Below are positions 2,762 through 45,878 of a stretch of 64,000 nucleotides of DNA, in pieces. The notes beneath the pieces are model-generated. The model worked only from the letters and a program-made list of their open reading frames with translations. It was not told where the DNA came from and did no database searches. The stretch spans positions 5,712,454-5,776,453 of the forward strand of contig OZ242003.1 in NCBI GenBank assembly GCA_965204675.1. The letters run 5' to 3'. Every line of letters begins with the position of its first letter. Position 1 is the stretch's first letter. Origin of the DNA: Vicinamibacterales bacterium. Its GTDB lineage: Bacteria > Acidobacteriota > Vicinamibacteria > Vicinamibacterales > UBA8438. Both the position numbers and the translations under genes were made by a program.

Positions 2762-2919
2762 GCCCGCCGATCGTCGCCTCCGGCTCCGCTGGGCGCCCAA
2801 CCAACCCCTGCCGGGAGTCTGCACGGTTCTACGGCGCAGACTCCCGGCGCCTCAAGCCCCGCCCTCCATCGCCCGCGGCGCCGCTCGGCCCGCGACCAGC
2901 CGCTCCGGACGCTCGGGAG
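2762..2919 (-). repeat. Dispersed hairpin repeat family, about 1.7 units, filling the dprA-topA intergenic gap
   Basis: gcccgccgatcgtcgcctccggctccgctgggcgcccaaccaacccctgccgggagtctgcacggttctacggcgcagactccc is the reverse complement of the unit seen at 23481 and 45795. A second, degraded unit follows. Confidence 0.8.
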
Positions 2920-2929
2920 CAGCGGCCCC

Positions 2930-4048
2930 CTAAGTTACCATCCCGGCCCGCACGAACCGGCCGGCGCCGGCGCGGGCAATCCGCCCCCGGAGCTCCAGGT
3001 CCGTGAGCCGGGCGAGCAGCGACGCGCTGTCGAGGCCGCTGCGGGCGGCGAGGTCGTCGACGTCGTAGACCTCTCCCGCGTCCATGTGGCGCAGGACGGG
3101 GTCCGGCGCGTCACCGGATCCGGCGTCCTCCCGAGGCCCCGCCCCACCGGCCGCTCCCGCCGCACCGCCCACCGGGAGGCCCAACTCCTCGACGACGTCG
3201 TCCGCGGTCTCGACGATCCGGGCGCCGTCCTTGAGCAGGGCATGGGCCCCGCGGTTCCGGCCCGTCAGCACGTTCCCCGGCACCGCCATCACGTCGCGAC
3301 CCTGCTCGAGCGCGAGCCGGGCGGTGATCAGCGATCCGCTACGCTCGGAGGCCTCCACCACGACCACCGCCCGGGACAGGCCGCTGATGAGGCGATTGCG
3401 CAACGGGAAATAGGCCGGACGCGGGGTGGTCGCCGGTGGAAGCTCGCTCACGAGCAGGCCGCGCACGGCAATCTCGTCCGCGAGGCCCGCGTGCTCGGGC
3501 GGATACACGACGTCGACGCCGGACCCGAGCACCGCGATCGTCCGCCCGCCCGCCGCGAGCACGCCCCGATGCGCGGCGGAATCGACCCCTCGCGCCAGCC
3601 CGCTGACCACGGAGACGCCCCGCGCCGCCAGATCGGCCCCGAGGCCGCGGCTGACCTCGCAGGCATAGGCCGTCCCGGCGCGGGAGCCGACGACCGCGAC
3701 CGCGGTTGCGTTCAGGGCGGTCAGGTCGCCGCGGAGCCACAGGACCGGGGGCGGGTCCGCGATGGCGGCCAGCGGCGCCGGATACCGCGGGTCCGGCCAG
3801 GGCACGGCCTCGATACCGAAGGCCGTCGCCGCGGCCATCGCGGCCCCGGCCCGGTCGCGCGCCGCCGACAGGCGCCCGGGGCTCGCCAACCGGGGAGCGA
3901 TTCCCGCGACCACGGCAGGGAGCGCGGCATCGGGCTCGCGTCCGAGCCGGGCCGCGCCGTGCGGGTCCGAGAGCCAGCTCGCGATGGCGCGGCGACCGCG
4001 GCCGCGCCACCAGAGCATGGCCAGGGCGACCCAGTCGTCGAGCGTCAT
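2930..4048 (-). CDS. dprA: DNA processing protein DprA/Smf
   Basis: Motifs AVVGSRAGTAYACEVSRGLGADLAARGVSVVSGLARGVDSAAHRG and FPLRNRLISGLSRAVVVVEASERSGSLITA. I chose the internal ATG at 4048 (MTLDDW); the upstream part of ORF 2930..4405 is Arg-rich junk. Confidence 0.9.
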   Translation of the reverse strand: MTLDDWVALAMLWWRGRGRRAIASWLSDPHGAARLGREPDAALPAVVAGIAPRLASPGRLSAARDRAGAAMAAATAFGIEAVPWPDPRYPAPLAAIADPPPVLWLRGDLTALNATAVAVVGSRAGTAYACEVSRGLGADLAARGVSVVSGLARGVDSAAHRGVLAAGGRTIAVLGSGVDVVYPPEHAGLADEIAVRGLLVSELPPATTPRPAYFPLRNRLISGLSRAVVVVEASERSGSLITARLALEQGRDVMAVPGNVLTGRNRGAHALLKDGARIVETADDVVEELGLPVGGAAGAAGGAGPREDAGSGDAPDPVLRHMDAGEVYDVDDLAARSGLDSASLLARLTDLELRGRIARAGAGRFVRAGMVT

Positions 4049-4341
4049 CGTCCTCGCCTCCCGGGGCCGCGGTGGCGCGGCCCTGCGGATCGCGCCGCGA
4101 GCGACCCCACCGGGTAGCGCACGACGGCACCGCTGAAACAGCGTTGATCTGAGGAGACGCCCGGACGGATCCGCCCGGCGAACGGCACCCCGACCGCGTT
4201 CAACGCGCAACCGGCGTGCCCGACCTGTTCCGCAGTATACCGCGGGGCCGCCTTGCCGCGCAGGCCCCCCGCGTTTCGAGCCTCCTCCCGCCCTCAGGCT
4301 TGCGCCGACGATGGACGACTGGCTATAGTGGATTCGAGCGG

Positions 4342-4692
4342 ATGCGAACGACACTTGCCGTACTGACCCTCGTCGTAGCCTGCGGCGCAACCGCGCCCGG
4401 CGCACAGGACCGGTCGGAGGCGCAGGCGCAGGTCGATTTCGGCATCGAGGTGGCCCGGCGCGGCCTCTGGAACGAGGCCATCTTCCGCTGGGAACGCGCC
4501 GTCGACATCGATCCGACCTACGCCGAGGCCTGGAACAACCTGGCCATCGCCTTCGAGCAGCAGGGACTCCTGGACCAGGCGCGCGAGGCCTACGAGACCG
4601 CCCTCGACCTCGCTCCCGACAACCTGGCCATCGAGCAGAACTACGACCTTTTCCTGGAAGTGAGTGACCGTGTCAGCCAAAGCTCTCGCTAG
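4342..4692 (+). CDS. TPR-repeat lipoprotein
   Basis: MRTTLAVLTLVVACGA signal with a lipobox Cys, followed by TPR-like AEAWNNLAIAFEQQGLLDQAREAYETALDLAPDN. Start taken at ATG 4342 rather than the ORF-track 4216. Confidence 0.7.
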   Translation: MRTTLAVLTLVVACGATAPGAQDRSEAQAQVDFGIEVARRGLWNEAIFRWERAVDIDPTYAEAWNNLAIAFEQQGLLDQAREAYETALDLAPDNLAIEQNYDLFLEVSDRVSQSSR

Positions 4693-5458
4693 TCTCGGTT
4701 GTGTCGGGCTGCTCGCCGGGTGCACCTCGTTCTACGACGTCGCCATCGAGACGCCGCTGACGCCGAAGCTGGACATCTCGAGGTTCCAGCGGGTGCTGAT
4801 CGCCGGCTTCGTCTCCGGCGGCTCGGAGGACGTCGACGCCAACCTCGAGACGGCCCGGCTGCTCCGCAGCCAGCTCCGCCGCAACTCGGACCTGCAGGTC
4901 GTCGACGCCGACGTCCTGCCGCTGCTCGAGATCGCGGCCGATCACGGGGGCGGGCCGGAGCCGCGCGGCGACTCCGCCGAGCCGGCGGAAGGGTCCGACG
5001 ACGTCGAGCCCATCGAGGACGACGACTCGATGAGCGAAGAGGATCTGGAGAGCTACGAGACGATCTTCGCCAACATCGGGTTCTGGCGCGACCTCGGCGA
5101 GGAGTACCAGGATCCGCTCATCCTGACCGGCACCATCTACTTCTCTCCGCACGCCCGTTCGGGCATGGTGACGAACCAGCGAGAGGTCTACGACTCGTTC
5201 GGGCGCCGCCGCACCGTGCCCGTGCGCACCTATCGCGACCGCCGCGGCTTCGTCCTGAGCCCGAAGTTCATCTTCATCGACGGCTCCAACGGAACCACGC
5301 TCTACACCGAGCGCCACCGCGAGGAGATCCTCTACGACGCGTCGCAGAACACGCCCGCCCTGTCGTCCTACTTCGAGCTGATGGACCGGCTGCTGCCGTC
5401 CGTGCTCGGGGCGTTCAGCACGCAGAGCGTACGGGGAACCCGCACCCTCCTCCGCTGA
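4664..5458 (+). CDS. Hypothetical lipoprotein with an acidic linker
   Basis: N-terminal [10 protein letters not shown] lipobox and non-biased composition ([24 protein letters not shown]). GTG start at 4664 or 4670; it overlaps the upstream gene end. Confidence 0.65.
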
Positions 5459-5549
5459 CGCGGCTTTACAGGCGCGCCGGTCGCGAGTACCCTGGATCGC
5501 TGTACGAGGCGCCGAGCGCCTCCTCATACGCAACGAAAGGTCCAAGCGC

Positions 5550-5870
5550 GTGTACGCCATCATTCAGGCCTCCGGACACCAGTACAGGGTGGAGCCGGGG
5601 CAGGTTCTCGATATCGACCGGATCGGCCAGGAGCCCGGGGAGACGGTCACGTTCGACCAGGTGCTGCTGGTGGGCCGGGACGACGGCTCGGTCGCCGCCG
5701 GCAACCCCACCGTTCCCGGAGCGACGGTCACCGGGTTCGTCGACGCTCACGACCGCGGCTCGAAGATCCGGGTGTTCAGGCACAAGCGGCGCAAGGGGAT
5801 GCGGCGCACGCGCGGACATCGCGCCGACCTCACCCGGGTCCGCATCAGCGACATCTCCGATTCCGACTGA
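5550..5870 (+). CDS. rplU: 50S ribosomal protein L21
   Basis: [25 protein letters not shown]... [20 protein letters not shown] is the typical L21 sequence. Confidence 0.97.
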
Positions 5871-5877
5871 GGCAGTC

Positions 5878-6144
5878 ATGGCGCACAAGAAGGGACAAGG
5901 CAGCTCGCGAAACGGCCGTGACAGCAATGCCCAGCGTCTGGGAGTGAAGCGCTTCGACGGCAACATCGTCACCGGGGGCTCGATCCTGGTGAGGCAACGC
6001 GGACAGCGGTTCCGCCCGGGCCTCAACGTCGGCATCGGCAAGGACGACACGCTCTTCGCCAAGATCGCCGGCCGCGTGCGATTCGAGGATCACGGCGGCC
6101 GGGGACGGGCCATCAGCGTGTTGCCACTGGAGTCCGCTCCGTAG
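5878..6144 (+). CDS. rpmA: 50S ribosomal protein L27
   Basis: [61 protein letters not shown]. It is in frame inside track ORF 4699..6144, with the ATG at 5878. Confidence 0.97.
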
Positions 6145-6211
6145 GAACGGCGCGGACTCCCGCAGGGTCCGGTCGGACGCCCGGCGGAGCCGCGGGCGGC
6201 GATGGGCGGGC
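6129..6211 (+). repeat. Dispersed hairpin repeat unit overlapping the rpmA stop codon
   Basis: ggagtccgctccg-TAGgaa-cggcgcggactcc followed by cgcagggtccggtcggacgcccggcggagccgcgggcggcgatgggcgggc. The rpmA TAG (6142-6144) lies in the hairpin loop. Confidence 0.8.
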
Positions 6212-6287
6212 TCGGGGTCGGCGTCCTGCCGCCCCCCGAACGCGGGCACTAGCAGAGCGGCCGCCGCGAATCCGTACTCCTTCAGGC

Positions 6288-7514
6288 ATGTTCGTCGACG
6301 AGGTCGACATCCACGTGACCGCCGGGGACGGCGGGCACGGCTGCCTGAGCTTTCGTCGCGAGAAGTCGGCGCCCCGGGGTGGACCCGACGGCGGTGACGG
6401 CGGCGACGGCGGCTCGGTCTACCTGGTCGCCAGCCCCCACCTGAACACGCTCGTCAACTACCGTTTCCATCCGACCTACTCCGCAAAGCGCGGCGCCCAC
6501 GGCAGCGGGTCGACCCGTACGGGCCGCAACGGCCGGGACCTCCGGCTCGAGGTCCCGCCGGGCACCGTCGCGTTCGAGCACCGTGACGACGCGTTCGTGG
6601 AGCTGGCGGACCTCGTCGAGCCGGGTCAGCGCGTGATCGTGGCCCGCGGGGGCCGCGGGGGCCGCGGCAACCGGCGCTTCGTCAGCGCGACCAATCAGGC
6701 CCCGCGGCGCACCGAGCCGGGCCGGCCGGGAGAGCAGCGGCAACTCCGGCTCCAGCTCAAGCTTCTCGCCGACGTGGGGCTGGTGGGCTTCCCGAACGCC
6801 GGGAAGTCGACGCTCATCGCCCGCATCTCGGCCGCGCGGCCGAAGATCGCGGACTATCCCTTCACCACCTTGAGCCCCAACCTCGGCGTGGTCGACCTCG
6901 GCGACGACCGGAGCTTCGTGGTCGCCGACGTGCCCGGCCTGATCGCGGGCGCCCACGTCGGGCACGGCCTCGGGGACCGGTTCCTGGCGCACCTCGAGCG
7001 CACCCGCGTCCTCGTGCACCTGGTCGACGTCTCGTCGCTCAGCGGACGGGACCCGTGCGAGGACTTCGAGGTCGTCCGCCGCGAGCTGGCCTCCTTCCGC
7101 GAGGACGGTGTCGGCGTCGGGATTCGCGGACGATTGTCGGACAAGCCCCAGGTCGTCGTGGCCAACAAGGTCGACGCGCTCGACGAACCCGACCGGCTCG
7201 AACGGCTCCGCGCCCACGCGCGGCGCGGTGGAATCGACTTCCACGCGATCTCCGGGGTCACCGGAGAGGGAGTCGCCGGTCTTCTCGAGGCCGTCTGGGC
7301 CCGCTTCCGCGACTCCGACCGCGAAGCCGCGACCCGGAGCCCGCGCGGCAGCGCGGGGCGGCCTCCCGGAGGGTCGGTCGAGCGCCGGACGGAGCCGTCA
7401 GGCGACGATTGGCGGGGCAGGAGTCCGCGCCGTGGAACGGGGCGGGGCCCCGGGGAGTCGGCCGGGCGCCGGGCGGAACCGTCGGGCGACGACAGGCGGG
7501 CCAAGCCCGAATGA
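6288..7514 (+). CDS. obg: GTPase Obg/CgtA with a repeat-derived low-complexity C-terminal tail
   Basis: [46 protein letters not shown] and ANKVD motifs. The frame stays open through the repeat units to the TGA at 7512-7514, overlapping the nadD ATG. Confidence 0.95.
7336..7502 (+). repeat. Two tandem units of the dispersed hairpin repeat inside the obg 3-prime coding region
   Basis: Unit 1 is 7336-7417 (ggagcccgcgcggcagcgcggggcggcctcccggagggtcggtcgagcgccggacggagccgtcaggcgacgattggcgggg). Unit 2 is 7418-7502 (caggagtccgcgccgtggaacgggg...ggcgacgacaggcgggcc). Confidence 0.8.
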
Positions 7515-8206
7515 GCGAGACAGCCCTGCGCACCGGCATCCTGGGCGGGCGATTCGACCCCGTTCACCGCGGTCACCTCGCCGCCGCGGCGGCGGCGCGG
7601 CGGCTTCTGCACCTCGACCGCGTGCTCATGCTGCCCTCCCGGCTCTCGCCCCACCGGAAGCAACCCGCCCGGGCCGGCGACGCCGACCGGCTGGCCATGG
7701 TGGCCCTCGCCGTGCAGGACGAACCGTTCCTGGAGCCGTGCGACCTGGAGCTGAAAGCCGACGGGCCCTCCTACACCGCAACCACCCTGCGCCGGCTCCA
7801 CGAGCGCGGGCATCCCCGCACGTCCCTGTACTTCATCGTCGGGGCCGATGCCTTCGCCGACATCGCCGCCTGGCACGACTATCCGCGCCTGCTCGACGCC
7901 GCCCACTTCGTGGTCGTCTCCCGTCCGGGATACCCTGCGGCGTCGCTCGCCGATGCCCTCCCGGCGGTGCGGCCGCGCCTGCGGGTCGTCGCGAACGACA
8001 CGGAACCGCCTGCGGAAGAGACCCTCCGCGCGCCGGTCGTGTTCCTGATCGGCGGCGACACGCCGGACATCTCGTCGAGCGACATCCGCACGCGTCTGGC
8101 GAACGGAGACGCGCTGGAGGAACGCGTGCCCGCGGCGGTGGCCGCGTACATCGACCGCCGGCGGCTTTACACGCGCGAACCGCTGGCAAGAGAGTTGCAT
8201 GACTGA
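7511..8206 (+). CDS. nadD: Nicotinate-nucleotide adenylyltransferase
   Basis: [23 protein letters not shown] (the GxFxPxHxGH motif) and [10 protein letters not shown] near the C-terminus. ATG at 7511, in frame within track ORF 7055..8206. Confidence 0.9.
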
Positions 8207-8576
8207 CCACGAGGCGGCTTCGCCCGGGACGGCGGCGGAATCGCTGCCGGAACCGCTGCTCGATGCGGTCGAAGCGGCGCGAGACCGGAAGGCGGACGAC
8301 CTGCTGGTCCTCGACCTGCGCGAGTCCGACGCCTTCACCGACCATTTCCTGATCTGCTCGGGCCACAGCCCCCGGCAGGTCACCGCGATAGTCGACGGCA
8401 TACTCGCCAGGCTCAAGGCGGTCGGCGTGCGGCCTTCGAGCGTCGAGGGCTACACGGAAGCCAACTGGGTGCTGATCGACTGCTTCGACTTCATCGTCCA
8501 TGTGTTCACCCCGGACACCCGACGCTTCTACGCGCTCGAGCGGCTCTGGGGCAACGCCGTCCGCCGCGAGTTGTAG
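8199..8576 (+). CDS. rsfS: Ribosome silencing factor RsfS (iojap family)
   Basis: KADDLLVLDLRESDAFTDHFLICSGHSPRQVTAIVDGI ... WVLIDCFDFIVHVFTPDTRRFYALERLW is the typical RsfS sequence. It sits in the conserved position after nadD. Confidence 0.9.
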   Translation: MTDHEAASPGTAAESLPEPLLDAVEAARDRKADDLLVLDLRESDAFTDHFLICSGHSPRQVTAIVDGILARLKAVGVRPSSVEGYTEANWVLIDCFDFIVHVFTPDTRRFYALERLWGNAVRREL

Positions 8577-9402
8577 CCGTGCGCCGGCGGGGCCGGCGCC
8601 CCGCCCCGGGGTCGCCCGGGACACGGCGCGGGTCGCGCGCCGCCTGGCAGAGGCGGGGCGGCAGGGCCTGGACGCCCTGCTCGCGGTGCTCCTGGCCCCG
8701 GACTGCGCGGCGTGCGGGACCGTCCTCGCCGCGCCCACGCGGGGGCCGGTCTGCGCGGCGTGCTGGCGGGCCGTGCCCCGCATCACCCCGCCCGTCTGCG
8801 ACCGCTGCGGCGATCCGCTGCCCGCCGGGCAGGCCGCGGCCCCGCCGCCGGCGCGCTGCCGCCGCTGCCGGCAGCCGCACGCGCTGATAGCCCGTCGACG
8901 GGCGGCCGGGCCCTACGAGGGCATCCTCCGCCGCCTCGTGCACGCCTTCAAGTACGAGCAGCGGCACGCCCTCGCGCCTCGTCTCGGGGGGCTGATGCGG
9001 GAGTCCGGGGCGGGCATGCTGGGCGGCGTCGACTGCGTGGTGGCGGTCCCGCTGCACCCGCGGCGGCACCGGACGCGGGGCTTCAATCAGGCGGCGGAGC
9101 TGGCCGTCCAGCTCGGCCTCCCGGTCGTCGGCGCCCTGCGGCGCATCCGGGCCACCGCGCCGCAGACGGAGCTGCCGGCGAGCCGGCGGCGCGTCAACGT
9201 GCGGGGGGCCTTCGCCCCGGCCCGGCGCTTCGGGGTCCGGTCGGGCGGGGCGGCGGTCGAGGGAGCCTGCGTGCTGCTCGTCGACGACGTCACCACCACC
9301 GGGGCGACGCTCGACGCCTGCGCCCGCGTGCTGCGGCGCGCCGGGGCTCGCGAGGTGCGGGCGCTCACGCTGGCGCGAGCCGTCCACCGAGCGCGGACAT
9401 GA
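8500..9402 (+). CDS. ComF family protein (phosphoribosyltransferase-like); start uncertain
   Basis: Zinc-finger-like CAACG...CAACW...CDRCG...CRRC, then VPLHPRRHRTRGFNQAAEL and VLLVDDVTTTGATL (PRTase motif). ATG 8500 overlaps rsfS by 77 nt; a later GTG/CTG start is possible. Confidence 0.8.
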   Translation: MCSPRTPDASTRSSGSGATPSAASCSRAPAGPAPRPGVARDTARVARRLAEAGRQGLDALLAVLLAPDCAACGTVLAAPTRGPVCAACWRAVPRITPPVCDRCGDPLPAGQAAAPPPARCRRCRQPHALIARRRAAGPYEGILRRLVHAFKYEQRHALAPRLGGLMRESGAGMLGGVDCVVAVPLHPRRHRTRGFNQAAELAVQLGLPVVGALRRIRATAPQTELPASRRRVNVRGAFAPARRFGVRSGGAAVEGACVLLVDDVTTTGATLDACARVLRRAGAREVRALTLARAVHRART

Positions 9403-9955
9403 TCTCGTCCGCGACATCGGCCCTGGCGCGGCTGCCGTCCACCCGGATCCAGCCGTCGTGCTCCGCCTGGCGCAGATAGCTGGCCCGGACCCGGGTGAGG
9501 AGCGCGAGGTCGCGCTCGTAACGGTCGAGCCCGATCGACTTCCGGGTCGCGGCGAGCTCGGGGGGGATGTCGAGGAGAAACGTCACGTCGGGGGGCGGAA
9601 GAAACCGCTGCATGTCGTCGAGCCACCCGACGTCGAGGTCCTGCGCTTCGCCGTAGGCCACGCTCGAGGCGACGTACCGGTCGCAGATCACGATGATCCC
9701 CGCATCGAGCCAACGCTGCAGGTCCGCCTTGCGCTCGTAGCGGTTGGCGACGTAGAGGAGCTGCATGACGTCGGGGCCGTAGTCGCGCTCCCCCTGCAGC
9801 GCGCGGGCAATCTCCTCCCCGATGGAGGTGCCGTAGTCGGGGAAGGACTCGAGGCGCGCCCGCCGGCCGTCGGCCCGCAGCCCGTCGCGCAGGAGCTGCC
9901 CCTGCGTCTCCTTCCCCGCCTGATCGAGTCCCTCCAGCGCAATCAACATCGGCAC
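9365..9955 (-). CDS. tmk: Thymidylate kinase
   Basis: MPMLIALEGLDQAGKETQ (P-loop-like), ICDRYVASSVAYG and LDIPPELAATR motifs. Confidence 0.9.
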   Translation of the reverse strand: MPMLIALEGLDQAGKETQGQLLRDGLRADGRRARLESFPDYGTSIGEEIARALQGERDYGPDVMQLLYVANRYERKADLQRWLDAGIIVICDRYVASSVAYGEAQDLDVGWLDDMQRFLPPPDVTFLLDIPPELAATRKSIGLDRYERDLALLTRVRASYLRQAEHDGWIRVDGSRARADVADEIMSALGGRLAPA

Positions 9956-9977
9956 GTCTCCCAGCCGCCATTACGTC

Positions 9978-10218
9978 GCCCAACCGCCATCGTCGCCTGG
10001 AGCCCGACCCACCTCCAGGAGCCCACGCCGTTCCCACGGCGACTCCTGGCCCGTCAATCGTCGCCCGACGGCTCCGCCCGGCGCCCGACCGGCCCTCCAG
10101 TGAGTCTGCGCCTCCTCCGGAGGCGGCGCCGTTCCACGGCGACTCCCGGCCCGCCAATCCGCCGGTGAGTCTGCGCCTCCTCCGGAGGCGGGCGCCGTTC
10201 TACGGCACCGACTCCCGG
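9978..10218 (-). repeat. Three contiguous units of the dispersed hairpin repeat (variant with a nested palindrome), between lysA and tmk
   Basis: Units are at about 9978-10048, 10049-10148 and 10149-10218. Each starts (plus strand) with gcccNNcaatcg/gcccaaccgccatcg and ends with cggcgactccNg. Units 2 and 3 carry the extra palindrome gcgcctcctccggaggcg. The last unit contains the lysA stop. Confidence 0.8.
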
Positions 10219-11477
10219 GGCACGGGCGCCGCAACCTCCCCGGCGAGCTGCTCGTCCATCGTCTGCCGGCGGCGCACGACCCGCCAGGCCGATGCGTCGA
10301 CCATGACCTCGGCCGGCAACGGATGCCGATTGTAGTTGGACGCCATGGCGGATCCATAGGCCCCGGCGTCGAACACCGCGACCAGCTCGCCCACCGCGGG
10401 CAACGGCAGCCGCCGCTCGACCCCGAAGACGTCCGACGATTCGCAGATCGGGCCCACGACGTCGCAGGTCACCACGTCGTCCTCACGCTCCTCCACGAGG
10501 GCAATCCGGTGATACGCCCCGTAGAGGGCCGGCCGCATCAACTCGCTCATGCCGGCGTCGAGCACCACGAACCAGGTCCCGTCGGCCCGCGGCTTCACGT
10601 CGACCACCGACGCCAGCAGGACCCCCGCGGGGCCGACGATGGCGCGGCCCGGCTCGACGATCAGGGTCAACCCCGTCGGCCGGGCCGCCTCGACGAGGGC
10701 CTCCGCGTAGGCGTCGACCGGCGGCGGCTCGCCCCCCGCCTCGTCGTAGGCGATGCCCAGTCCGCCGCCGAGGTCGAGGTGCTCCAGCTTCACGCCGTCG
10801 TCGGCCAGCTCCTGCGCCAGGGCGACCACCGAGGCCGCCGCCCGCCGCAACGGCCCCAGCCCGAGCATCTGGGAGCCCACGTGGATGTGCAGCCCGGTGA
10901 AGCGCAGCCCCGCGCGGCTCGCGGCATCGCGCACGATCGCCCGCGCGTCGCCGATCGCGACCCCGAACTTGTGCCGGCTCAGGCCGGTCGAGATGTGGGG
11001 ATGGCTGTCGGCGGCGATGTCCGGATTGACGCGGAGGGCGACGCGGGCCGTCGTGCCGCGCCGCCGCGCGGCGCCCGCTATCCGCTCCAGCTCGCCCGCC
11101 GATTCGGCGTTGATGGCCTTGACCCCCAGCTCGACCGCCCGGTCGATCTCCGCCGGGGTCTTCCCCACCCCCGTGAAGACGATGTCCCCGGGGGCGAAGC
11201 CGGCCCGCAGGGCCACCTCGATCTCGCCGCCCGAGTTGGCGTCCACGAGGCCGCCGGCGGTCCGGACGACCTCGACCACCGCGAGGTTGGAGTTGGCCTT
11301 CAGCGCGTAGTGCACGGCGTGCGGCCACGGCTCGAAGCCGGCCCGGAAACGACGCACGCGCTCGCGAATGACGGCCGCGCTGTAGACGTAGACGGGCGTT
11401 CCGACCTCCGCCGCCATCGCGGCCAGCGGCACGCCGTCGCATTCCCATCCCCCGCCGCCGCGAACGAAACCCGACAT
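10200..11477 (-). CDS. lysA: Diaminopimelate decarboxylase
   Basis: HYALKANSNLAVVEVV, FTGLHIHVGSQ, LDLGGGLGIAY, EPGRAIVGPAG and VGPICESSD motifs. Start chosen at ATG 11477 (MSGFVRGGGGWECDGVPL). Confidence 0.93.
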   Translation of the reverse strand: MSGFVRGGGGWECDGVPLAAMAAEVGTPVYVYSAAVIRERVRRFRAGFEPWPHAVHYALKANSNLAVVEVVRTAGGLVDANSGGEIEVALRAGFAPGDIVFTGVGKTPAEIDRAVELGVKAINAESAGELERIAGAARRRGTTARVALRVNPDIAADSHPHISTGLSRHKFGVAIGDARAIVRDAASRAGLRFTGLHIHVGSQMLGLGPLRRAAASVVALAQELADDGVKLEHLDLGGGLGIAYDEAGGEPPPVDAYAEALVEAARPTGLTLIVEPGRAIVGPAGVLLASVVDVKPRADGTWFVVLDAGMSELMRPALYGAYHRIALVEEREDDVVTCDVVGPICESSDVFGVERRLPLPAVGELVAVFDAGAYGSAMASNYNRHPLPAEVMVDASAWRVVRRRQTMDEQLAGEVAAPVPRESVP

Positions 11478-11637
11478 CGAAGGCGCATTGTACGGCACGG
11501 GGGCGGCGGCCGCACCGGCGCCCCGCACCCGCCGCCGCGGCCGGACGCCGCCCTCCGCGGGTACGGACGCGCATTGACCGTCTCCGCCGCCGTCGCTATA
11601 CTCCGTCGATCCGCCCTCGCCGGCGTGCCAGTGACCC

Positions 11638-12264
11638 ATGCTCGTGAGCTCCGCTCCCTCCTCATCCGAATCGATCGACGAGCTCATCGAACGGTGTCTG
11701 GCGGGGGACGAGCGCGCCTGGGACCGGATAGTCACCCTGCACTGGCGCCGGGTCTTCAACGTCGCCTACAAGTTCGTGGGCCGTCACGACGTGGCCGAGG
11801 ACCTCACCCAGGAGATATTCCTCAAGATCTTCCGGGCGCTGGGCACCTTCGACCGGCGCGCCAACTTCCAGACGTGGCTCATCAGCGTCAGCCGCAACCT
11901 GTGCATCGACCACTACCGCAGCGTCCGGAAGGAGCGCGAGCTGGTGGACCGCAACGTGGACGCGGCGGACGTCTCGCCCGTCAGCCGCGAGCCGGACCCC
12001 CTCACCGCGCTGGAGCGGAGCGATCGCCGGATGCTGCTGCATCGGGCGCTGGAGCAACTGCCCGACACCCTGCGCACCGCGGTCCTCATGCGCGACATCC
12101 AGGAGCAGTCGTACCGCGAGATCGCCCAGGCGCTCGACCTCCCCGAGGGCACCGTGAAGTCACGGATCAACCGCGGCCGCCACGAGCTGGCCCGGCAGAT
12201 CCGCCGGCTGATCTCCGAGGCCGAGGCGGGGAGCACCCAGGCCGGCAGCCAGGAGCGACCATGA
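11638..12264 (+). CDS. ECF-type RNA polymerase sigma-70 family factor
   Basis: Region 2 (DVAEDLTQEIFLKIFRALGTFDRRANFQTWLISVSRNLCIDHYR) and region 4 (QSYREIAQALDLPEGTVKSRINRGRHEL). Confidence 0.9.
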   Translation: MLVSSAPSSSESIDELIERCLAGDERAWDRIVTLHWRRVFNVAYKFVGRHDVAEDLTQEIFLKIFRALGTFDRRANFQTWLISVSRNLCIDHYRSVRKERELVDRNVDAADVSPVSREPDPLTALERSDRRMLLHRALEQLPDTLRTAVLMRDIQEQSYREIAQALDLPEGTVKSRINRGRHELARQIRRLISEAEAGSTQAGSQERP

Positions 12265-12602
12265 AGCTCACCACCGAACAGAACGGCAACGTCGCCATCG
12301 TCCGCGTCGGCGAGGAGCGGCTGGTGTACCCCCTGTTGCCGACGTTCGCGGACGCGGTCACGACGATGATCGAGGGCGGCGCCCACAACGTCCTCATCGA
12401 CCTGTCGCCGGTCGTCTACGTCGACAGCGCCTCCATCGGGTGCCTGATGGATCTGTACCGAAAGTCGTCGGCAGCGGGGGGAACGCTGAAGCTGGCGAGC
12501 GTCCAGAAGCGCGTGGAGACGATGTTGACGATGACCGGAGCCCAGCACTTCATCGAGATCCACGGCGACGAGCCCGGCGCGCTCGCGGCCTTCGGGGTGT
12601 GA
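12261..12602 (+). CDS. STAS-domain anti-sigma-factor antagonist-like protein
   Basis: MKLTTEQNGNVAIVRVGEERL ... NVLIDLSPVVYVDSASIGCLMDLYRK ... TLKLASVQKRVETMLTMTG has the SpoIIAA/RsbV-like layout including the DS[AS]S serine. The ATG at 12261 overlaps the sigma stop (ATGA). Confidence 0.85.
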   Translation: MKLTTEQNGNVAIVRVGEERLVYPLLPTFADAVTTMIEGGAHNVLIDLSPVVYVDSASIGCLMDLYRKSSAAGGTLKLASVQKRVETMLTMTGAQHFIEIHGDEPGALAAFGV

Positions 12603-12603
12603 C

Positions 12604-12873
12604 ATGCGGAGTATCACGACGACCGGCGGAATTGCGCTGCCGCTCGACGGCGATCTGCTGGGGATGCTCGAAACCCTGTACAAGGAGCTGAACACGCGCT
12701 ACGCCCTCGATCGCACGTTCGAGGACACCGTGCGCGAGATCGCCCATCTGCTCGATCAGATGACCGACGAGGAGCGGCGCGCCTACCTCGCCGAGAGCCT
12801 CTTCCTCAACACCGTCACCTACGAGAACGAGCGCCTGGGCGCGTACGTGCGGAAGGTCACCGAGAACGCCTGA
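12604..12873 (+). CDS. Hypothetical 89-aa protein, third gene of the sigma/STAS operon
   Basis: Non-biased composition (MLETLYKELNTRYALDRTFEDTVREIAHLLDQMTDEERRAYLAESLF). The ATG lies 1 nt after the STAS stop. I recognise no family. Confidence 0.55.
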   Translation: MRSITTTGGIALPLDGDLLGMLETLYKELNTRYALDRTFEDTVREIAHLLDQMTDEERRAYLAESLFLNTVTYENERLGAYVRKVTENA

Positions 12874-12899
12874 CGTCAGGGGGAAGCCGGGCGGCCGGC

Positions 12900-13814: not shown

Positions 13815-13954
13815 GGAGCGGCGACCTCCAAGGGGGGCGGGCCGAACGACCGATCGACGACAGGGCGCCGTCCAGAGTGTCTCACTGAACCGGTTATCGG
13901 CATGTTCCGCGAGTTCATGCGCGACTCGACCCTCTTGTCACCGTAACACATCTG

Positions 13955-16804
<2,850 letters not shown>

Positions 16805-16842
16805 CGGCCGTGATCAGGTTCCAGCCCGGAGAGCGTCGCCCC

Positions 16843-16988: not shown

Positions 16989-17046
16989 TCCCGTCCCGTG
17001 CTGCCGCAGTCAGTCGCCGCCAGCGCCGCCCAAACTCTTGATGCTA

Positions 17047-18066: not shown

Positions 18067-18116
18067 CTACGACGGCGGGAGCGGACGGCCGGCAGCCCGG
18101 GTGACGCCACGGGCTG

Positions 18117-33148: not shown

Positions 33149-33192
33149 GCGCGGGCGCACGGGCAGGTGAGGCGACGGCCGTCAAGGGCTGA

Positions 33193-33923: not shown

Positions 33924-33979
33924 GCGGACGGCGCATGATCGAATGGACCGTCGTGTGCGCATGATGCTATTTTTGACCC

Positions 33980-34219: not shown

Positions 34220-34222
34220 CCG

Positions 34223-34615
34223 ATGGCCCGCCTGCTCCTCGACTCGACGGTGCTCATCGACGCCCTCCGCGGCCAGCCCGCCGCCGCTCGATTGGCCGCC
34301 CTGCGACGGGCCGGCACCGAGCCCTGGGCCTGCGTGATATCCGTCGAGGAGATATGGCGCGGCCTGCGACCCGCCGAGGAGACCGTCGCCCGCCGTCTGT
34401 TCAACGGCCTGCGACTGGCCCCGCTGGGGGTCGCCGAAGGAATGCGGGCCGGCGCATGGCGCCGGGAGTTCGCCCGCCGGGGGATAACCCTCCAGCAGGC
34501 CGATTGTCTGATCGCCGCGGCCGCGGCCGGGGTCAGCGCCGCACTGGCAACCGCGAACGTCGACGACTTCCCGATGGCAGAGATCAACGTTCAGCACTGG
34601 CCGACCGGCCAGTGA
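34223..34615 (+). CDS. vapC: PIN-domain ribonuclease toxin VapC
   Basis: MARLLLDSTVLIDAL (Asp 1), ISVEEIWRG (Glu), QQADCLIAAAA (Asp) and TANVDDF (Asp). Confidence 0.88.
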   Translation: MARLLLDSTVLIDALRGQPAAARLAALRRAGTEPWACVISVEEIWRGLRPAEETVARRLFNGLRLAPLGVAEGMRAGAWRREFARRGITLQQADCLIAAAAAGVSAALATANVDDFPMAEINVQHWPTGQ

Positions 34616-34667
34616 AGGCGAGAACGACGGAGATGACGCCAGCCGCCACGGTCGCAGAGTCGGGGCC

Positions 34668-35951
34668 ATGATCACCTCGCTTGAACTCGTCGACTTCAAG
34701 AACTTCGCCGACGAGAGGCTGAGCCTCGGCCCCTTCACCGTGATCGTGGGCGCGAACGCCAGCGGCAAGAGCAATATCCGCGACGCGTTCCGGTTTCTTC
34801 ACGGCATAGGCCGCGGCTACACCCTGGCCGAGATCCTGGGGGGCAGGTACGGACCAGGCGGTCAGGCCGAATGGACGTCGATTCGGGGCGCCCCCAACGA
34901 GATCGCGCGTCTGAAGCACCCCGACGGCGAAACCAGGTTTGCGCTGTCCGTCGGACTGCAGCTTGACGGCGAGGCCGTTCGGTACTTTATCGAAGTAGCA
35001 GAGGATCGCAAGAGCTCTGGTGGCTTCAAGGTATTCAACGAGGAACTCGAGGTCCAAGGCGAACAGATCTACACCAGTCGGCCGGATTCGCCCGATCCTG
35101 TAGGCGACCAGTTCGACCAAGCCCATTTGCTCCTTCGCATGGCAAAAGCGGGCAGGCAACGCAAACTTGGTGCTCGTGTCGACGTCAGACTCGATCAACC
35201 GGCCTTGACCCAAATCGGAGAGCACCATCGCGTGAGTCGCGCTCACAAGGACCACGCCAAGAGGGTCATGGACGCTTTGGCCAGCATGCGCTTTCTGGAT
35301 CTGATTCCGGATCGCATGCGACAACCCTCATTCCCGGGACAGACCATTCTGGGCGACGGTGGCGAAAATCTGCCGACCGTGCTGCGTGAAATCTGTACCG
35401 ATCCGAAGAGGCGGAAAACGCTGATCGGTTGGGTCCGCGCGCTGACGCCGATGGATGTCAGCGACTTCCAGTTTCCCGTGGACTCGATCACCGGCTTGGT
35501 CCGGCTGGTCGTGCACGAAAAAGACGGCAGAACCTGCTCCGCGTACAGCGCGTCCGATGGCACGCTACGATTTCTCGCCATGCTCGCGGCGCTTCTTGCA
35601 GACGATCCGACCGGCTTTTTTTTCTTCGAGGAAATCGACAACGGCATTCATCCCGCGCGGCAATGGCTGCTGCTGGAGTTGATCGAGAAACAAACGTCCA
35701 AGGGCGCGGTCCAGGTAGTCACCACCACCCACTCGCCGGGATTGCTGACATCGATTAACGACCGCACGTTCAGTAGCACCTCTCTCGTCTGCCGTCGCGA
35801 GGCCGCCACCGACGCCATCATCCGATCCGTGTCCGCACTGCCCAACGCGAAGAAGCTCCGAAAGACCCAGGGTCTTGACCGGCTGCTGGTCGGAGGCTGG
35901 ATGGAAGACATGATCGAGTTCACGGAGGCCGCCCGGGATACGGACACATGA
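34668..35951 (+). CDS. ABC/SMC-like AAA ATPase (AAA_15/AAA_21-type)
   Basis: Walker A GANASGKS (aa 28-35), signature-like SDGTLRFLAML (aa 296-306), Walker B FFFFEEIDNGIHP (aa 317-329) and H-loop TTTHSP (aa 352-357). GC content is visibly lower than in the backbone. Confidence 0.9.
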   Translation: MITSLELVDFKNFADERLSLGPFTVIVGANASGKSNIRDAFRFLHGIGRGYTLAEILGGRYGPGGQAEWTSIRGAPNEIARLKHPDGETRFALSVGLQLDGEAVRYFIEVAEDRKSSGGFKVFNEELEVQGEQIYTSRPDSPDPVGDQFDQAHLLLRMAKAGRQRKLGARVDVRLDQPALTQIGEHHRVSRAHKDHAKRVMDALASMRFLDLIPDRMRQPSFPGQTILGDGGENLPTVLREICTDPKRRKTLIGWVRALTPMDVSDFQFPVDSITGLVRLVVHEKDGRTCSAYSASDGTLRFLAMLAALLADDPTGFFFFEEIDNGIHPARQWLLLELIEKQTSKGAVQVVTTTHSPGLLTSINDRTFSSTSLVCRREAATDAIIRSVSALPNAKKLRKTQGLDRLLVGGWMEDMIEFTEAARDTDT

Positions 35952-36511
35952 CGGTACTCATCGTTCCGGAGGATTTTCGCAAGGACCAATTCATCCTGAA
36001 GCCGCTCTTTTCGAGACTTCTTGCATCGCTGGGTAAGCCGCACGCCACGGTGAGGGTCTGTGTGGACCCACTGCTGGGTGGGGTCGACGAAGCGCTGAAG
36101 GCGAAACGCATGGCCGACATCGTCCAGCGCTACGGCGGCAGGGTACAGGTCATCGTGCTGTGCATCGACCGCGACGGCAACACCGGGCGGCGCCAACGGC
36201 TCGATCAACTCGAAGAAACGCTCGGCGAGCGTTTTCTGGGCGCCGAGGCATGGGAGGAGGTCGAGACATGGGTCCTGGCCGGACTGAAACTTCCTGCCGA
36301 ATGGAAATGGGCGGACGTGCGGGCCGAGGTGCAGGTCAAGGAGCTGTACTTCAACGTGCTGGCGAAACAACGCGGCGTCGACGGTGGCCCCGATGGCGGG
36401 CGAAGTGAACTGGCAGGGGAAGCGGCGCGCCGCATCGACGCGGTCCGCCGGAAGTGCCCCGAGGACTTCGACGCCCTCGCCAGGCGACTCGAGGCCATCG
36501 TCCGCAACTGA
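35948..36511 (+). CDS. DUF4276/TOPRIM-like small partner protein (putative nuclease effector)
   Basis: The ATG at 35948 overlaps the ATPase stop (ATGA). Features are an N-terminal strand plus acidic VLIVPED, the central VLCIDRDGN (DxD), EEVETWVLA and the C-terminal RRKCPEDFDALARRLE. From memory these resemble the DUF4276 layout; the assignment needs an HMM search. Confidence 0.7.
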   Translation: MTVLIVPEDFRKDQFILKPLFSRLLASLGKPHATVRVCVDPLLGGVDEALKAKRMADIVQRYGGRVQVIVLCIDRDGNTGRRQRLDQLEETLGERFLGAEAWEEVETWVLAGLKLPAEWKWADVRAEVQVKELYFNVLAKQRGVDGGPDGGRSELAGEAARRIDAVRRKCPEDFDALARRLEAIVRN

Positions 36512-36608
36512 CGGGACTGCAGATGACCCCGAAGCCCCCTGGACCCCTGGCACCGCGTGATTGCCCGGCGCCCTTCCGGCCCGGGGGACGCACCGGCGTG
36601 GCCACGCG

Positions 36609-39722: not shown

Positions 39723-40709
39723 TCACTGCTGCGTGGCCGCCGCCTCCGCGTCCTCGGCCCGGCCCGCCCGCAGGCTGTTCTCGAGCCCGTAGTTGCCCTC
39801 GTGGCAGGCGTACTCGAAGAGCTGGTACGTCGTGTCCCGGTTCAGGGGCATGGCGACGGTCCACGGCGAGGTGAACACGGTGTTGTCGTCGACGGTCACC
39901 TCGTAGGTGATGGTGTCGTCGCCGTTCCGCGTGAACCGCTCGACCACCCGCAGGTTCTCGCTCTGGGGAATGCCGCGCACGCCCCGGGTCGCGATGTTGG
40001 TGCCGATGGTGCCCTGGTCGTTGTAGTTGGTGGTCTCCACGACCAGGGTGTCGCCCTCCCAGCGCCCGCGCGCGTCGCCGTTCCACTGGCGGATGCTGTC
40101 GGGCAGGTGGGGGCTGCCGTCCACGGGGATGATGCGGGCCTCGTGGATCATCTCGTAGAAGAGCACCACGTGGCCGGGGATCTGCAGGATCTGGTAGCCC
40201 GCCCCGTAGCCCGGCGGGAAGATGCCCCCCGGCACGCCGCGGGTGATGCAGCGCTCCCACGGGGTGTGGTTCAGCCACGAGTCGGTGAGGTTGATCAGGT
40301 TGTAGTCGCGGATGGCCCGGGCCTCGTCCCGCACCGGGAGCCGGCCGTTGGGCGGGTCGACGATCATCGACCGGCGCCGCTGGTTCCGCAGGGCGTCACC
40401 GGGACCGTCGCCCCAAGGCCCCTGCGGGGGACGCGCCCGGTCCTCGACCGACTGGGGCATCGCCGGCATCCGCTGAGGCTGGTTGCTGCCGGGGAACCAC
40501 GCGGCCAGCGGGGCCAGCCGCTCGATGTCGGCCTCGTCGGGGGCCTCGAACGGGGTGGAGTCGAAGTTGGTCCACACGCCCTGGATGTCGGGCTGGCCGT
40601 CCGGCGTCCGCGGGCCGGTGTAGTGCTGCGCCCCCGCCGGCGCGGCGCCGAGGGCGACGATCGCGGCCAGGACCGCCGCGGCGCAGGCTGTGCGACATGC
40701 CGTGCTCAT
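39723..40709 (-). CDS. Secreted conserved hypothetical protein (ACHEGNY-motif family), paralog 1
   Basis: Signal peptide MSTACRTACAAAVLAAIVALGAAPAGA. Blocks IVDPPNGRLP, RIIPVDG, GRWEGDTLVVETTN, RVVERFTR and FEYACHEGNYGL are shared with the gene at 60020..61015. Confidence 0.8.
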   Translation of the reverse strand: MSTACRTACAAAVLAAIVALGAAPAGAQHYTGPRTPDGQPDIQGVWTNFDSTPFEAPDEADIERLAPLAAWFPGSNQPQRMPAMPQSVEDRARPPQGPWGDGPGDALRNQRRRSMIVDPPNGRLPVRDEARAIRDYNLINLTDSWLNHTPWERCITRGVPGGIFPPGYGAGYQILQIPGHVVLFYEMIHEARIIPVDGSPHLPDSIRQWNGDARGRWEGDTLVVETTNYNDQGTIGTNIATRGVRGIPQSENLRVVERFTRNGDDTITYEVTVDDNTVFTSPWTVAMPLNRDTTYQLFEYACHEGNYGLENSLRAGRAEDAEAAATQQ

Positions 40710-44097: not shown

Positions 44098-44282
44098 CGG
44101 TGCGCCGGCGGCTACGGCCACCGCCGCGGCCACGCCCTCCTCTCGGCATGAAGCCCGCCACGAGTCGAGAACGGACCGCCGCCTCTTCGGGGTCCGGTCA
44201 ACTCGTGTGGCGCTATAATCCGACTCCGGTGGCGCTCCCGGTGCGCGCCTCGACGGCCGCGCCGCTCCAGGCCCATGCACAG

Positions 44283-45638
44283 ATGACCATGCGATCCGTC
44301 CCGGCCGTCATCCTGCTCACCGTGCTCGCAGCCAGTTGCGGCGGGGGCGCTCCCGATCCCGTCAGCACCGTCGTCGCCTACCAGGGGGCCACGCTGATCA
44401 CCGGAGACGGCGGCCCGCCCATCGGGGGCGGGGTGCTGGTGGTCGACGACGGGCGCATCGTCGCCGCGGGCCGGGCCGCCAGCGTGCCGGTTCCCGAGGA
44501 CGCCACCGTGGTCGACCTCGCCGGCAAGACGGTCATGCCCGCGCTCGTCGACCTGCACGGGCACGTCGGGTTCCAGCAGGGCCTGAGCTACGACTACGCG
44601 AACTACACCCGCGAGAACCTGCTCGACCAGCTCCACCGTTACGCGTACCACGGCGTCGGCACCATCGTCTCGATGGGGACCGACCCCGGCGAGCTGGCGT
44701 TCGGGATCCGGGCCGAGCAGGAGGCGGGCACGCTGGGCGGGGCCCGGCTGCACACCGCGTTCCGCGGCATCGCGCGGCCGAACGCGGGGCCGGGGGCCGC
44801 GACCATGCGGCCGACTGCGTTCGGGGTGTCCACGCCCGACGAGGCGCGCGCCGTCGTCGAGGAGATCGCGGCCACCCGCGCCGACTTCGTCAAGATCTGG
44901 GTCGACGACCGGGGCGGCTCGGTCGAGAAGCTCACCCCCGACCTCTACGAACCGATCATCGCGGTCGCGCACGAGCGCGGCCTGCGGGTCATCGCCCACG
45001 TCTACTACCTCGACGACGCCCGCGCCCTCGTCGACGCGGGGGCCGACGGGTTCGCCCACCTGCCGCGCGACCTCGAGATGGACGACGAACTGGTGGCCGC
45101 CATCGTCGAGAACGACGTGTTCGCCATGCCGAACCTGAGCATCTCGGAACGGGGCCGGCACGTCGAGCCGCCGGCCTGGGTCGAGCACCCGCTGCTGCTC
45201 GAGTCGGTGGCCGGCGACGTCCTGGCGCGCATCCGCTCGTCGTTCGAGAACCGCACGCCCGAGGCGGCGGCGCGGGCGGCCGAGTCCTGGGCGGCGATGC
45301 AGTCCAGCCTGAAGAAGCTGGCCGACGCCGGCGCGCGCCTCGTCCTCGGCGCCGACACCGGCGTGCAGGACCACGTGCCGGGCTTCATGGAGCACCGCGA
45401 GCTCGAGCTGTTCGTCGAGGCGGGCATCTCGCCGGCCGACGCCATCCGCATCGCCACGAGCGCGTCGGCCGAGGTGCTCGGCGCCGACACCGGCCTGCTG
45501 GAGGCGGGGCGCCGCGCCGACTTCGTGGTGCTCGACGCCAACCCGATGTTCGGCATCGCGAACACCCGGCAGATAGCGGACGTCTACCTGAACGGAGAAG
45601 CGGTCGACCGGGACGCGCTCAGGGCCGGCTGGCGGTAG
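44283..45638 (+). CDS. Amidohydrolase family lipoprotein (imidazolonepropionase-like metal hydrolase)
   Basis: LTVLAASCGG lipobox, GKTVMPALVDLHGHVG (HxH metal motif), VIAHVYYLDDA and LVLGADTG. ATG at 44283 inside track ORF 41661..45638. Confidence 0.88.
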   Translation: MTMRSVPAVILLTVLAASCGGGAPDPVSTVVAYQGATLITGDGGPPIGGGVLVVDDGRIVAAGRAASVPVPEDATVVDLAGKTVMPALVDLHGHVGFQQGLSYDYANYTRENLLDQLHRYAYHGVGTIVSMGTDPGELAFGIRAEQEAGTLGGARLHTAFRGIARPNAGPGAATMRPTAFGVSTPDEARAVVEEIAATRADFVKIWVDDRGGSVEKLTPDLYEPIIAVAHERGLRVIAHVYYLDDARALVDAGADGFAHLPRDLEMDDELVAAIVENDVFAMPNLSISERGRHVEPPAWVEHPLLLESVAGDVLARIRSSFENRTPEAAARAAESWAAMQSSLKKLADAGARLVLGADTGVQDHVPGFMEHRELELFVEAGISPADAIRIATSASAEVLGADTGLLEAGRRADFVVLDANPMFGIANTRQIADVYLNGEAVDRDALRAGWR

Positions 45639-45794
45639 CGCCTCAGGCGCCCGCGCCGTCGACCCGTGCAGACACCGCGGGCGGTTCGGGCGTCGGCGCC
45701 GGCCGAGCCGGAAGGCGCTTGCCGGGACGGGACGGTGCAGACCGGCGACGGATCGGTGGGAGGGTACGGCGCCGCCGGACGGCGATGCCCGGAT

Positions 45795-45878
45795 CAGAAG
45801 TCTGCGCCGTAGAACCGCGCGGACTCCCGGACGGTTGGTCAGGCGCCAAGCGGAGCCGAAGGCGACGATTGGCGGGCC
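45795..45878 (+). repeat. Dispersed hairpin repeat unit
   Basis: cagaagtctgcgccgtagaaccgcgcggactcccggacggttggtcaggcgccaagcggagccgaaggcgacgattggcgggcc. More degraded related sequence lies at about 45670-45790. Confidence 0.85.

Follow-up and report, generated by a model that had tools for sequence, protein, structure and literature searches.

Small hairpin-bearing repeats at gene ends across the Vicinamibacterales, best read as mobile elements

The 64-kb window analyzed here, the whole stretch of contig OZ242003.1 presented above from a Vicinamibacterales bacterium, carries dispersed copies of a repeat unit in which a tagged hairpin is followed by a structured tail. The best reading of the family is that of order-wide, small, hairpin-bearing mobile repeats that insert at gene ends in Vicinamibacterales soil bacteria. 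Copies are gained and lost between genomes with 86-97% identical flanks. New copies lie directly 3' of a top-strand YAG, which is mostly a TAG stop codon and sometimes the AG of an AGGAG ribosome-binding site. Because insertion 3' of a YAG leaves a YAG flanking both ends, the element often supplies or replaces a stop codon, as a boundary TAG, as an in-frame back-up TAG in the hairpin loop, or as a 3' CTAG for a convergent gene. Arrays grow by head-to-tail local duplication. The family is probably a repetitive extragenic palindromic (REP)-like non-autonomous mobile element that targets (C)YAG in a strand-specific manner, amplifies locally in tandem and is selected against where inserted in antisense.

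Structure and distribution of the units

The unit is 83 or 84 nucleotides (nt) long. It begins with a 5' (C)YAG tag, continues with a hairpin (P1) of 13-17 base pairs (bp), a G-rich linker and a helix (P2) that encloses a 3-bp helix (P3), and ends in a 3' (C)YAG. The consensus of 139 aligned full units reads C-[T/C]-A-G-GAGTCTGCGCCG-TAGAA-CGG[C/T]GC[G/A]GACTC-CT[G/A]G, then CAGGGTTGGTTGG, and continues as GCGCC-N-AGCGGAGCCG-NA-GGCGACGAT-N'-GGCGGGC-[T/C]AG. P1 reaches 17 bp when the tag is included, P2 is CGCCNA/TN'GGCG and P3 is GCC/GGC. The original prediction, made from the window alone, had the consensus and the hairpin-plus-tail arrangement right and gave the stem 13 bp. The 5' end profile is [C/G][C/T][A/G]GGAGTC and the 3' end profile GGGC[T/C/G]AG(G). 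The tag profile, [C 68% / G 23%][C 60% / T 38%][A 70% / G 23%]G, corresponds mostly to CTAG or CCAG, with GTAG in the minority. A minor tail variant, present in 4 genomes, has P2 exchanged for another helix, GGTGAGCG...CGCTCTCC.

The three helices were set by hand and their pairs counted, because RNAalifold on a MAFFT alignment missed P1 through gap placement. Under this structure 93% of cells are paired, compared with 34-41% in slid controls. Stem covariation, which had been proposed as a check on the original prediction, is present: changes on both sides of a pair occur in 99 cells versus 38.9 in shuffles, and the observed value was reached by none of 500 shuffles. Pair 69-93 is AU 48 times, CG 45 times and GU 30 times. 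On the sense strand G-U pairs outnumber A-C pairs by 253 to 87, and the consensus folds at -53.4 kcal/mol in sense versus -44.6 kcal/mol in antisense (about 9 kcal/mol apart). The G-U excess and the better sense fold suggest that the structures belong to one ("top") strand, the sense strand of the neighboring gene, as RNA or as single-stranded DNA. This signal is supportive rather than decisive, because much of it is inherited within subfamilies.

A 24-base tail pattern has 5 matches in the window versus none in 100 shuffles. The tail pattern was scanned once over a collection of species-representative genomes and was found in at least 114 stretches; among the matches listed, all but about two chance matches are in metagenome-assembled genomes of Vicinamibacterales or Vicinamibacteria. 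The one alphaproteobacterial match (L044) has no unit at the site and is due to chance. About 23 species-level assemblies account for the first 80 loci alone, and the family is present in at least 23 species genomes of the Vicinamibacterales (Acidobacteriota). Phage as a vector was rejected, the pattern being present in none of 2.9 million viral contigs. Eighty orthologous obg loci from more distant relatives (metagenomes; Obg 49-70% identical) have no unit and were used as empty-site outgroups.

The related loci (L001-L114) form a comparison sample of about 900 kb, and motif searches covered 1.3 Mb of sequence in total. Iterated nhmmer over the 900 kb and the window recovered 222 units, which group into 165-175 clusters. 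In the genomes that carry the family, the density is roughly one cluster per 8-17 kb. Single units make up 124 of 165 clusters and the remainder are head-to-tail arrays of 2-5 units; orientations are mixed in only seven of the 165. Array periods range from 78 to 86 nt; most are 83 or 84 nt, and these two are equally common. Units of the same array have private variants in common, which points to local duplication.

The family appears to be undescribed. The original prediction did not recognize it, and no Rfam family matched at gathering score in the 64-kb window, with a permissive scan of one unit giving only chance-level matches (E ≥ 1.7). A limited literature search on Vicinamibacter intergenic repeats turned up one paper, with an unrelated title. 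The window contains no tRNA or tmRNA.

Some units depart from the consensus. Two units at locus 4 of the window have a 17-nt palindrome, CGCCTCCGGAGGAGGCG (CGCCTCC-GGA-GGAGGCG), nested in the 3' arm of P1. It occurs in three genomes (window 10043-10220, minus strand; L046:6637-6734; L066 near 377, minus strand), and the orthologous unit in L050 is without it. Either a second tiny insertion or a template-switch product could have turned P1 into a three-way junction here. At L014:3622-3702 the P1 loop is inverted (GTTCTAC for GTAGAAC) in an otherwise canonical unit, which looks like a loop flip inside the palindrome. Tail-only copies are joined to unrelated 5' sequence, in L002 within a different outer stem (GGCGCT...AGCGCC); the tail may be an independent module. 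Units at L023 near 7384 and L027 near 1602 (both OZ251506.1) are one base apart and have the same flank, GCTATAATGCCGTATG, with a TATAAT box. They could be two copies of a larger repeat, or the loci could overlap at one site. The motif GTTCCGCGAACCAC, upstream of units at window locus 9 and in L046/L050, does not mark orthologous loci.

Insertion sites, stop codons and orientation

All-against-all BLAST of the loci, with units masked, yielded 14 orthologous pairs. Where flanks are at least 86% identical (86-97%), six sites are occupied in both genomes and another six in only one of the two. At one TAG stop, L068 has one sense unit and L107 three to four antisense units. L061 (OZ253457.1), which is 97% identical to the window over 7.7 kb, has both units of the SGL-propeller locus at the orthologous site.

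Five polymorphic sites are clean (a slash marks the insertion point). The empty site in L032 is GGA-TAG/CCGGAG; in its filled counterpart, L025, the 5' boundary is CGG, the 3' boundary is CAG, and the reading frame now stops at the loop TAG. The empty site in L043 is GCGC-TAG/CGCGA, and filled L060 is TAG-unit-TAG-unit-TAG. In L085 the empty site is a ribosome-binding site, ACC-AG/GAGCGGACATG, filled in L008. L021 has CACC/GAGCATG, filled in L084. The window is empty at 13971, where L061 has a unit plus 75 nt, and the frame of the empty allele is two codons longer; an insertion without targeting would account for this site, as would a deletion between 7-nt repeats.

YAG is found at both unit ends and TAG at two of the five empty sites. 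IS5-group elements duplicate YTAR or CTAG, and the direct (C)YAG repeats that flank the unit, together with TAG at empty sites, could be target-site duplications of a classical miniature inverted-repeat transposable element (MITE) moved by a DDE transposase, e.g., of the IS5/IS1031 or IS630 type. An element with a terminal YAG of its own that inserts 3' of another YAG would account for the YAG on both sides equally well. Comparison of the unit ends revealed no terminal inverted repeats, the 5' end being CTAGGAGTCTGCGCC and the reverse complement of the 3' end CTAGCCCGCCAATCG, with the tag alone in common; in this respect the original prediction was correct that the family is not a classical insertion sequence (IS)-derived MITE. 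The pairing is strand-asymmetric and there is no transposase nearby. A MITE of this kind is a most improbable explanation.

Of 77 genes whose stop lies within 25 nt of a unit, 65 use TAG, versus 129 of 370 genes at a distance of over 150 nt from every unit (odds ratio 10, p = 1e-15). An upstream sense frame comes within 30 nt of the unit in 72 clusters, and its stop is TAG in 60 of them. These TAG stops lie at unit position 0 (the boundary) or position 15 (the P1 loop), both of which are in the same frame. A second, independent scoring found 45 sense genes that end at the 5' end of a unit, and opposite-strand genes end at the palindromic 3' CTAG in 17-19 clusters. The TAG share among genes far from any unit in L001-L114 (35%) seems high at a genomic G+C of about 72%; many TAG stops may be remnants of decayed units.

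The window illustrates these arrangements. The abgT stop TAG (23326-23328) is the 5' boundary of a degenerate first unit, and the 3' boundary CTA (23563-23565) of the unit at 23478-23569 is the TAG stop of a convergent gene (23563-24837, minus strand); therefore two units fill the whole spacer. The rpmA (L27) frame extends over five codons of the hairpin before the loop TAG (6142-6144) ends it. L27 orthologues without a unit are five residues shorter, ending in ...ISV(I/L)P(I/V)E. The stop of a lysA-type gene (10200-10202) is the loop TAG of the first unit there. The obg frame (6288-7514) takes in both tandem units (7331-7507), which add about 58 Arg/Gly-rich C-terminal residues, and terminates in a TGA overlapping the start ATG of the following gene (ATGA), a cytidylyltransferase-like gene that is possibly nadD. 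The boundary and loop TAGs do not stop obg because its frame is +1 relative to the TAG frame. A coding repeat was rejected, as periods of 83 and 84 nt are equally frequent and the main frame holds the TAGs.

Mycobacterial interspersed repetitive units (MIRUs) are head-to-tail units of 40-100 bp between operon genes at about 40 loci; they are gene-oriented, and their frames may overlap neighboring stop and start codons. The present units likewise are head-to-tail, lie between operon genes and are gene-oriented, the stop/start frame overlap being seen here only at obg. They differ in their hundreds of dispersed single copies (an extrapolated number) with insertion polymorphism, and there is no sequence relation. 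MIRUs are known neither to carry a tagged hairpin nor to target stop codons. A MIRU-like minisatellite, spread by replication slippage within operons only and kept since its short frames couple the translation of neighboring genes, would account for arrays of 1-5 units with private variants, for the orientation shared with flanking genes, and for the obg frame that passes through two units to overlap the next start. It is nevertheless very unlikely. Most clusters are single units at unrelated dispersed loci, the variable period does not conserve a frame, stop codons stand in the canonical frame, and slippage can make neither new loci nor opposite orientations at one site. Clean filled and empty sites are also observed.

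The original prediction held that units are always 3' of a gene and in its sense orientation. This is so in the window, where six loci are in co-directional spacers, all in sense, two are convergent and none is divergent; in a convergent spacer, sense to one gene is automatic. Outside the window it is a strong tendency and not a rule, with about 9-18% of co-directional cases antisense and 7-9% of clusters in divergent spacers. The related loci were scored twice, once with all gene calls and once with confident genes within 500 nt only. With all gene calls, co-directional spacers contain 78-82 sense versus 15-18 antisense clusters, and 33-37 clusters are in convergent and 13-14 in divergent spacers. 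The distribution by spacer type (100 co-directional, 37 convergent, 14 divergent) differs from that of background spacers (401, 104 and 100; chi-square p = 0.002). With confident genes only, there are 49 sense, 5 antisense, 11 convergent and 5 divergent clusters (p = 4e-10). The orientation census called for by the original prediction, taken here on the 900 kb of related loci, thus retains the sense bias, with divergent spacers depleted but occupied. Four of the five confident antisense cases abut a 3' CTAG.

Where genes within the same 8-kb locus face opposite ways, the elements are also opposed in 13 of 15 pairs. Because elements oppose when genes oppose, the polarity follows the gene and not the locus or the direction of replication, and replication-coupled orientation is rejected by these pairs.

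Such polarity would also be expected if the unit were an RNA element that the host selects in 3' untranslated regions. It could then block 3'-to-5' exonucleases, bind an RNase or an RNA-binding protein, or serve as a non-canonical terminator; it would have spread through the genome and be kept in sense because it works in the transcript. REPs stabilize upstream mRNA in E. coli. The sense-strand-specific pairing with its G-U excess, the near-invariant tail over at least 23 species, the tail-only copies, and the retention of roughly half the sites where two genomes have flanks about 90% identical all fit this explanation. Several observations do not. A scan of positions 1-20000, which include six loci, for intrinsic terminators (a hairpin plus a U run) flags no unit, P1 being followed by CAGGGTTGGTTGGG, and there is no Rfam match. 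The same housekeeping sites (rpmA, obg) are unit-free in 80 relatives, and presence, copy number and orientation vary between close genomes. Copies are found inside reading frames, at ribosome-binding sites and in divergent spacers. P1 begins on the stop codon, so that a terminating ribosome would unfold it. On balance an RNA element of this kind is a serious but unlikely candidate.

Relation to REP-type repeats and a possible mechanism

GTAG-tagged REPs are tagged hairpins present in hundreds of clustered extragenic copies; they lie near gene 3' ends in unidirectional and convergent spacers, provide TAG stops, and are also found within genes (PMC3733652). These repeats, along with REP doublets forming hairpins (REPINs) and bacterial interspersed mosaic elements (BIMEs), are mobilized by RAYT (TnpA-REP) Y1 nucleases (PMC3333891; PMC3733652). 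Class 3 Y1 nucleases are found with high-copy atypical hairpins in Acidobacteria, with about 600 copies in Solibacter (PMC6006769).

The family resembles GTAG REPs and REPINs in its tagged GC-rich hairpin, its hundreds of extragenic copies (here extrapolated) in unidirectional and convergent spacers by gene 3' ends, its termini that donate TAG stops, and its occasional in-frame copies inside genes. Clustering and tandem reiteration, single-strand folding, and a lineage-specific sequence conserved across related species are further likenesses. It differs in size, the unit being 83/84 nt and a REP 20-40 nt, in the pairing of the hairpin with an unrelated and even more conserved structured tail, and in that no RAYT gene is linked to it. 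Like the ends of IS200/IS605 elements and their miniature derivatives, the palindrome-associated transposable elements (PATEs), the units have strand-specific hairpins and no terminal inverted repeats, insert directly 3' of a short specific sequence, and close at the right end in a similar sequence. Unlike IS200/IS605, whose orientation follows replication on the lagging-strand template, these units follow the neighboring gene, and neither tnpA nor tnpB was found in motif searches of 1.3 Mb. The high copy number agrees with what is reported for class 3 TnpA-Y1 repeats in an acidobacterium, but the class 3 repeats of Acidobacteria and Planctomycetes have a CnGA foot where YAG is found here (PMC6006769).

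The original prediction preferred a function at the RNA level to a mobile element. The turnover in presence, copy number and orientation, the ends at TAG stops, the lack of a canonical terminator and the REP precedent (PMC3733652) leave that preference unsupported. RNA-level function is possible; the family is best seen as a variant of REP-type repeats and not as a new class of RNA gene.

A mechanism for the REP-like mobile element can be proposed. TAG stops and AGGAG are strand-specific marks of gene boundaries, and targeting to them would by itself produce the 3'-of-gene position and the sense polarity. Antisense copies would arise where the stop context allows. Purifying selection may then clear insertions from promoters and in antisense. 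The tail is 48% G in sense and hence 48% C in an antisense transcript, where this C-rich, G-poor segment could be a Rho loading site inside operons and impose a selective cost. The mobilizing enzyme is most likely a single-strand-specific HUH/Y1 nuclease (RAYT or TnpA-REP-like) acting in trans, which would also explain the conservation of the sequence across species. By analogy with REPs, transcribed sense hairpins probably act as 3'-end structures, as a secondary consequence.

A number of observations weigh against the REP-like mobile element. The tail is more strongly conserved than the hairpin, and in some genomes it is present without P1 (L002:1577-1626, L002:7866-7914, L003:4512-4557); a function selected in the host would explain conserved tails and tail-only copies equally well. 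At two of the five clean polymorphic sites (window 13971 vs L061; L021 vs L084) the empty allele lacks a YAG, so that either targeting is not strict or secondary deletions have occurred. The sense bias also holds in clusters that do not abut a stop codon (49 versus 12). Target choice alone is therefore insufficient, and selection or an unknown mechanism is needed; for this residue of the bias, either selection or decayed upstream units that mask the original abutment must be invoked. REPINs and BIMEs are inverted doublets, whereas the units here are head-to-tail with strong gene-sense polarity, and the tag is mostly CTAG or CCAG in place of the GTAG of the tagged REPs. No transposase was found: crude searches of the 1.3 Mb for HUH/Y motifs and for RAYT and class 3 Y1 motifs were empty, with about 0.4 REPtrons (RAYT genes flanked by their repeats) expected in a sample of this size.

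Two further possibilities, which together we regard as rather improbable, are a transcription-coupled single-strand transposon that uses the exposed non-template strand 3' of a TAG stop, and a domesticated gene-end cassette. Coupling to transcription would account for a polarity that is set by the gene and not by replication. A gene-end cassette may combine a stop, a back-up stop and a protein-recognized RNA tail to define or regulate mRNA 3' ends genome-wide. The near-invariant tail would then be the putative binding site of an unknown conserved protein.

Units of the window and implications for the Vicinamibacterales

The window (71.7% G+C) was searched for direct repeats, with an nhmmer profile hidden Markov model (HMM) seeded from four units, and with a covariance model (CM) with filters off. 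Loci 1-8 of the original prediction were recovered by all three methods (Table 1); its ninth locus consists of split hairpin arms, CAGGAGTCTGCGCCGC and GCGGCGCAGGCTCCTGG, at 61385-61370 and 61295-61279 on the minus strand. The six strongest units score 63-91 bits in the covariance model. A gene map from a codon-usage model, together with Pfam matches (DprA, L27, Obg, DAP-decarboxylase type, SGL propeller, NlpC/P60, AbgT, amidohydrolase), bore out the flanking genes that had been named.

Table 1. Repeat units and relics in the 64-kb window. CM, covariance model.
Feature	Position	Strand	Evidence
Full unit between dprA (2930-4048, -) and the next minus-strand gene downstream	2756-2849	-	CM 87.4 bits; nhmmer E = 2e-15
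Degenerate partial unit between the dprA stop (2930) and the full unit; tentative assignment	2851-2919	-	Weak CM match, 17.1 bits, E = 0.22
Full unit overlapping the rpmA 3' end	6124-6217	+	CM 69.6 bits
obg array, first unit	7331-7423	+	CM 63 bits
obg array, second unit (weaker tandem partner)	7435-7507	+	CM 30 bits
Locus 4, three tandem variant units	9964-10220	-	nhmmer and CM
Locus 4, unit	10043-10111	-	CM 43.5 bits
Locus 4, unit	10143-10220	-	CM 25.1 bits
Locus 4, third unit	9974-10048	-	nhmmer only, E = 4e-4
Unit downstream of SGL-propeller gene (17047-17979, -)	16837-16929	-	CM 65 bits
Weaker tandem partner, SGL-propeller locus	16932-16990	-	CM 24 bits
Diverged unit in convergent spacer after NlpC/P60 gene	19413-19506	+	CM 28.2 bits
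Two 30-nt collapsed junction repeats after the diverged NlpC/P60-locus unit	to 19557	+	Sequence
Degenerate first unit of abgT spacer	23326-23477	+	Sequence; weak CM match 23323-23378, 20.4 bits
P1 relic in degenerate abgT unit, GTCTGCGCCG-CAGAA-CGGCGCA		+	Sequence
Full unit, abgT spacer	23478-23569	+	CM 88 bits
Degraded unit, begins 5 nt past amidohydrolase TAG stop (45636-45638)	45643-45726	+	nhmmer E = 0.11
Full unit downstream of amidohydrolase	45792-45883	+	CM 91.3 bits
3' flank of the 45792-45883 unit, CCAGGGAG; 9 nt further, ATG		+	Sequence
P1-only relic (locus 9) downstream of M28 peptidase gene, without tail	61270-61385	-	Sequence; weak nhmmer matches

The ATG beyond the unit downstream of the amidohydrolase gene is probably the start of the next gene, which the gene caller placed at 45929. 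The arms of locus 9 are split by a 74-nt insert of lower GC (61296-61369, minus strand) that has an inverted repeat of its own, CATGAAGGGATTGG...CCAACCCCTTCATG; this insert could be another kind of small element, one with the hairpin loop as its target.

Other features of the window were observed in passing. Two 98-nt direct repeats (20999-21208; 93% identical, 112 nt apart) lie upstream of abgT in a stretch of about 1.2 kb without a confident gene, and a permissive Rfam scan of 20480-21800 gave chance matches only. The codon-usage model makes no confident gene call over about 3.4 kb (33150-36600), and G+C is 0.59 at 35000-36000 versus 0.72 in the window overall; this region may be foreign or non-coding DNA. 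The direct-repeat search also found paralogous genes at 39723-40709 and 60020-61015 (both minus strand), 20.3 kb apart with about 72-75% DNA identity. A relative with flanks about 95% identical has an 813-nt insertion (L114:6299-7112) that the window lacks at 50273, where it would separate an HflX-like GTPase gene from its neighbor. By eye, the inserted sequence looks like a vapBC-type toxin-antitoxin pair (a PIN-domain toxin and a small antitoxin).

This appears to be the first described repeat family for the Vicinamibacterales, which are abundant and poorly studied soil Acidobacteriota, and the density of one cluster per 8-17 kb extrapolates to several hundred clusters per genome. The family is unusual in that its unit is composite and asymmetric, its arrays run head-to-tail, its gene-sense polarity is 9:1 and it systematically supplies stop codons. 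For annotation, many stops are repeat-supplied, spacers may consist wholly of units, and C-termini can be repeat-encoded; in the window this applies to the 5 residues that end L27 and to about 58 residues of Obg. Differences in presence and copy number between close genomes could serve as strain markers. Unlike symmetric REPINs, the asymmetric unit allows orientation to be scored, and the bias tracks transcription and not replication. The family is therefore a good system in which to separate target choice from selection in the placement of REP-type repeats.

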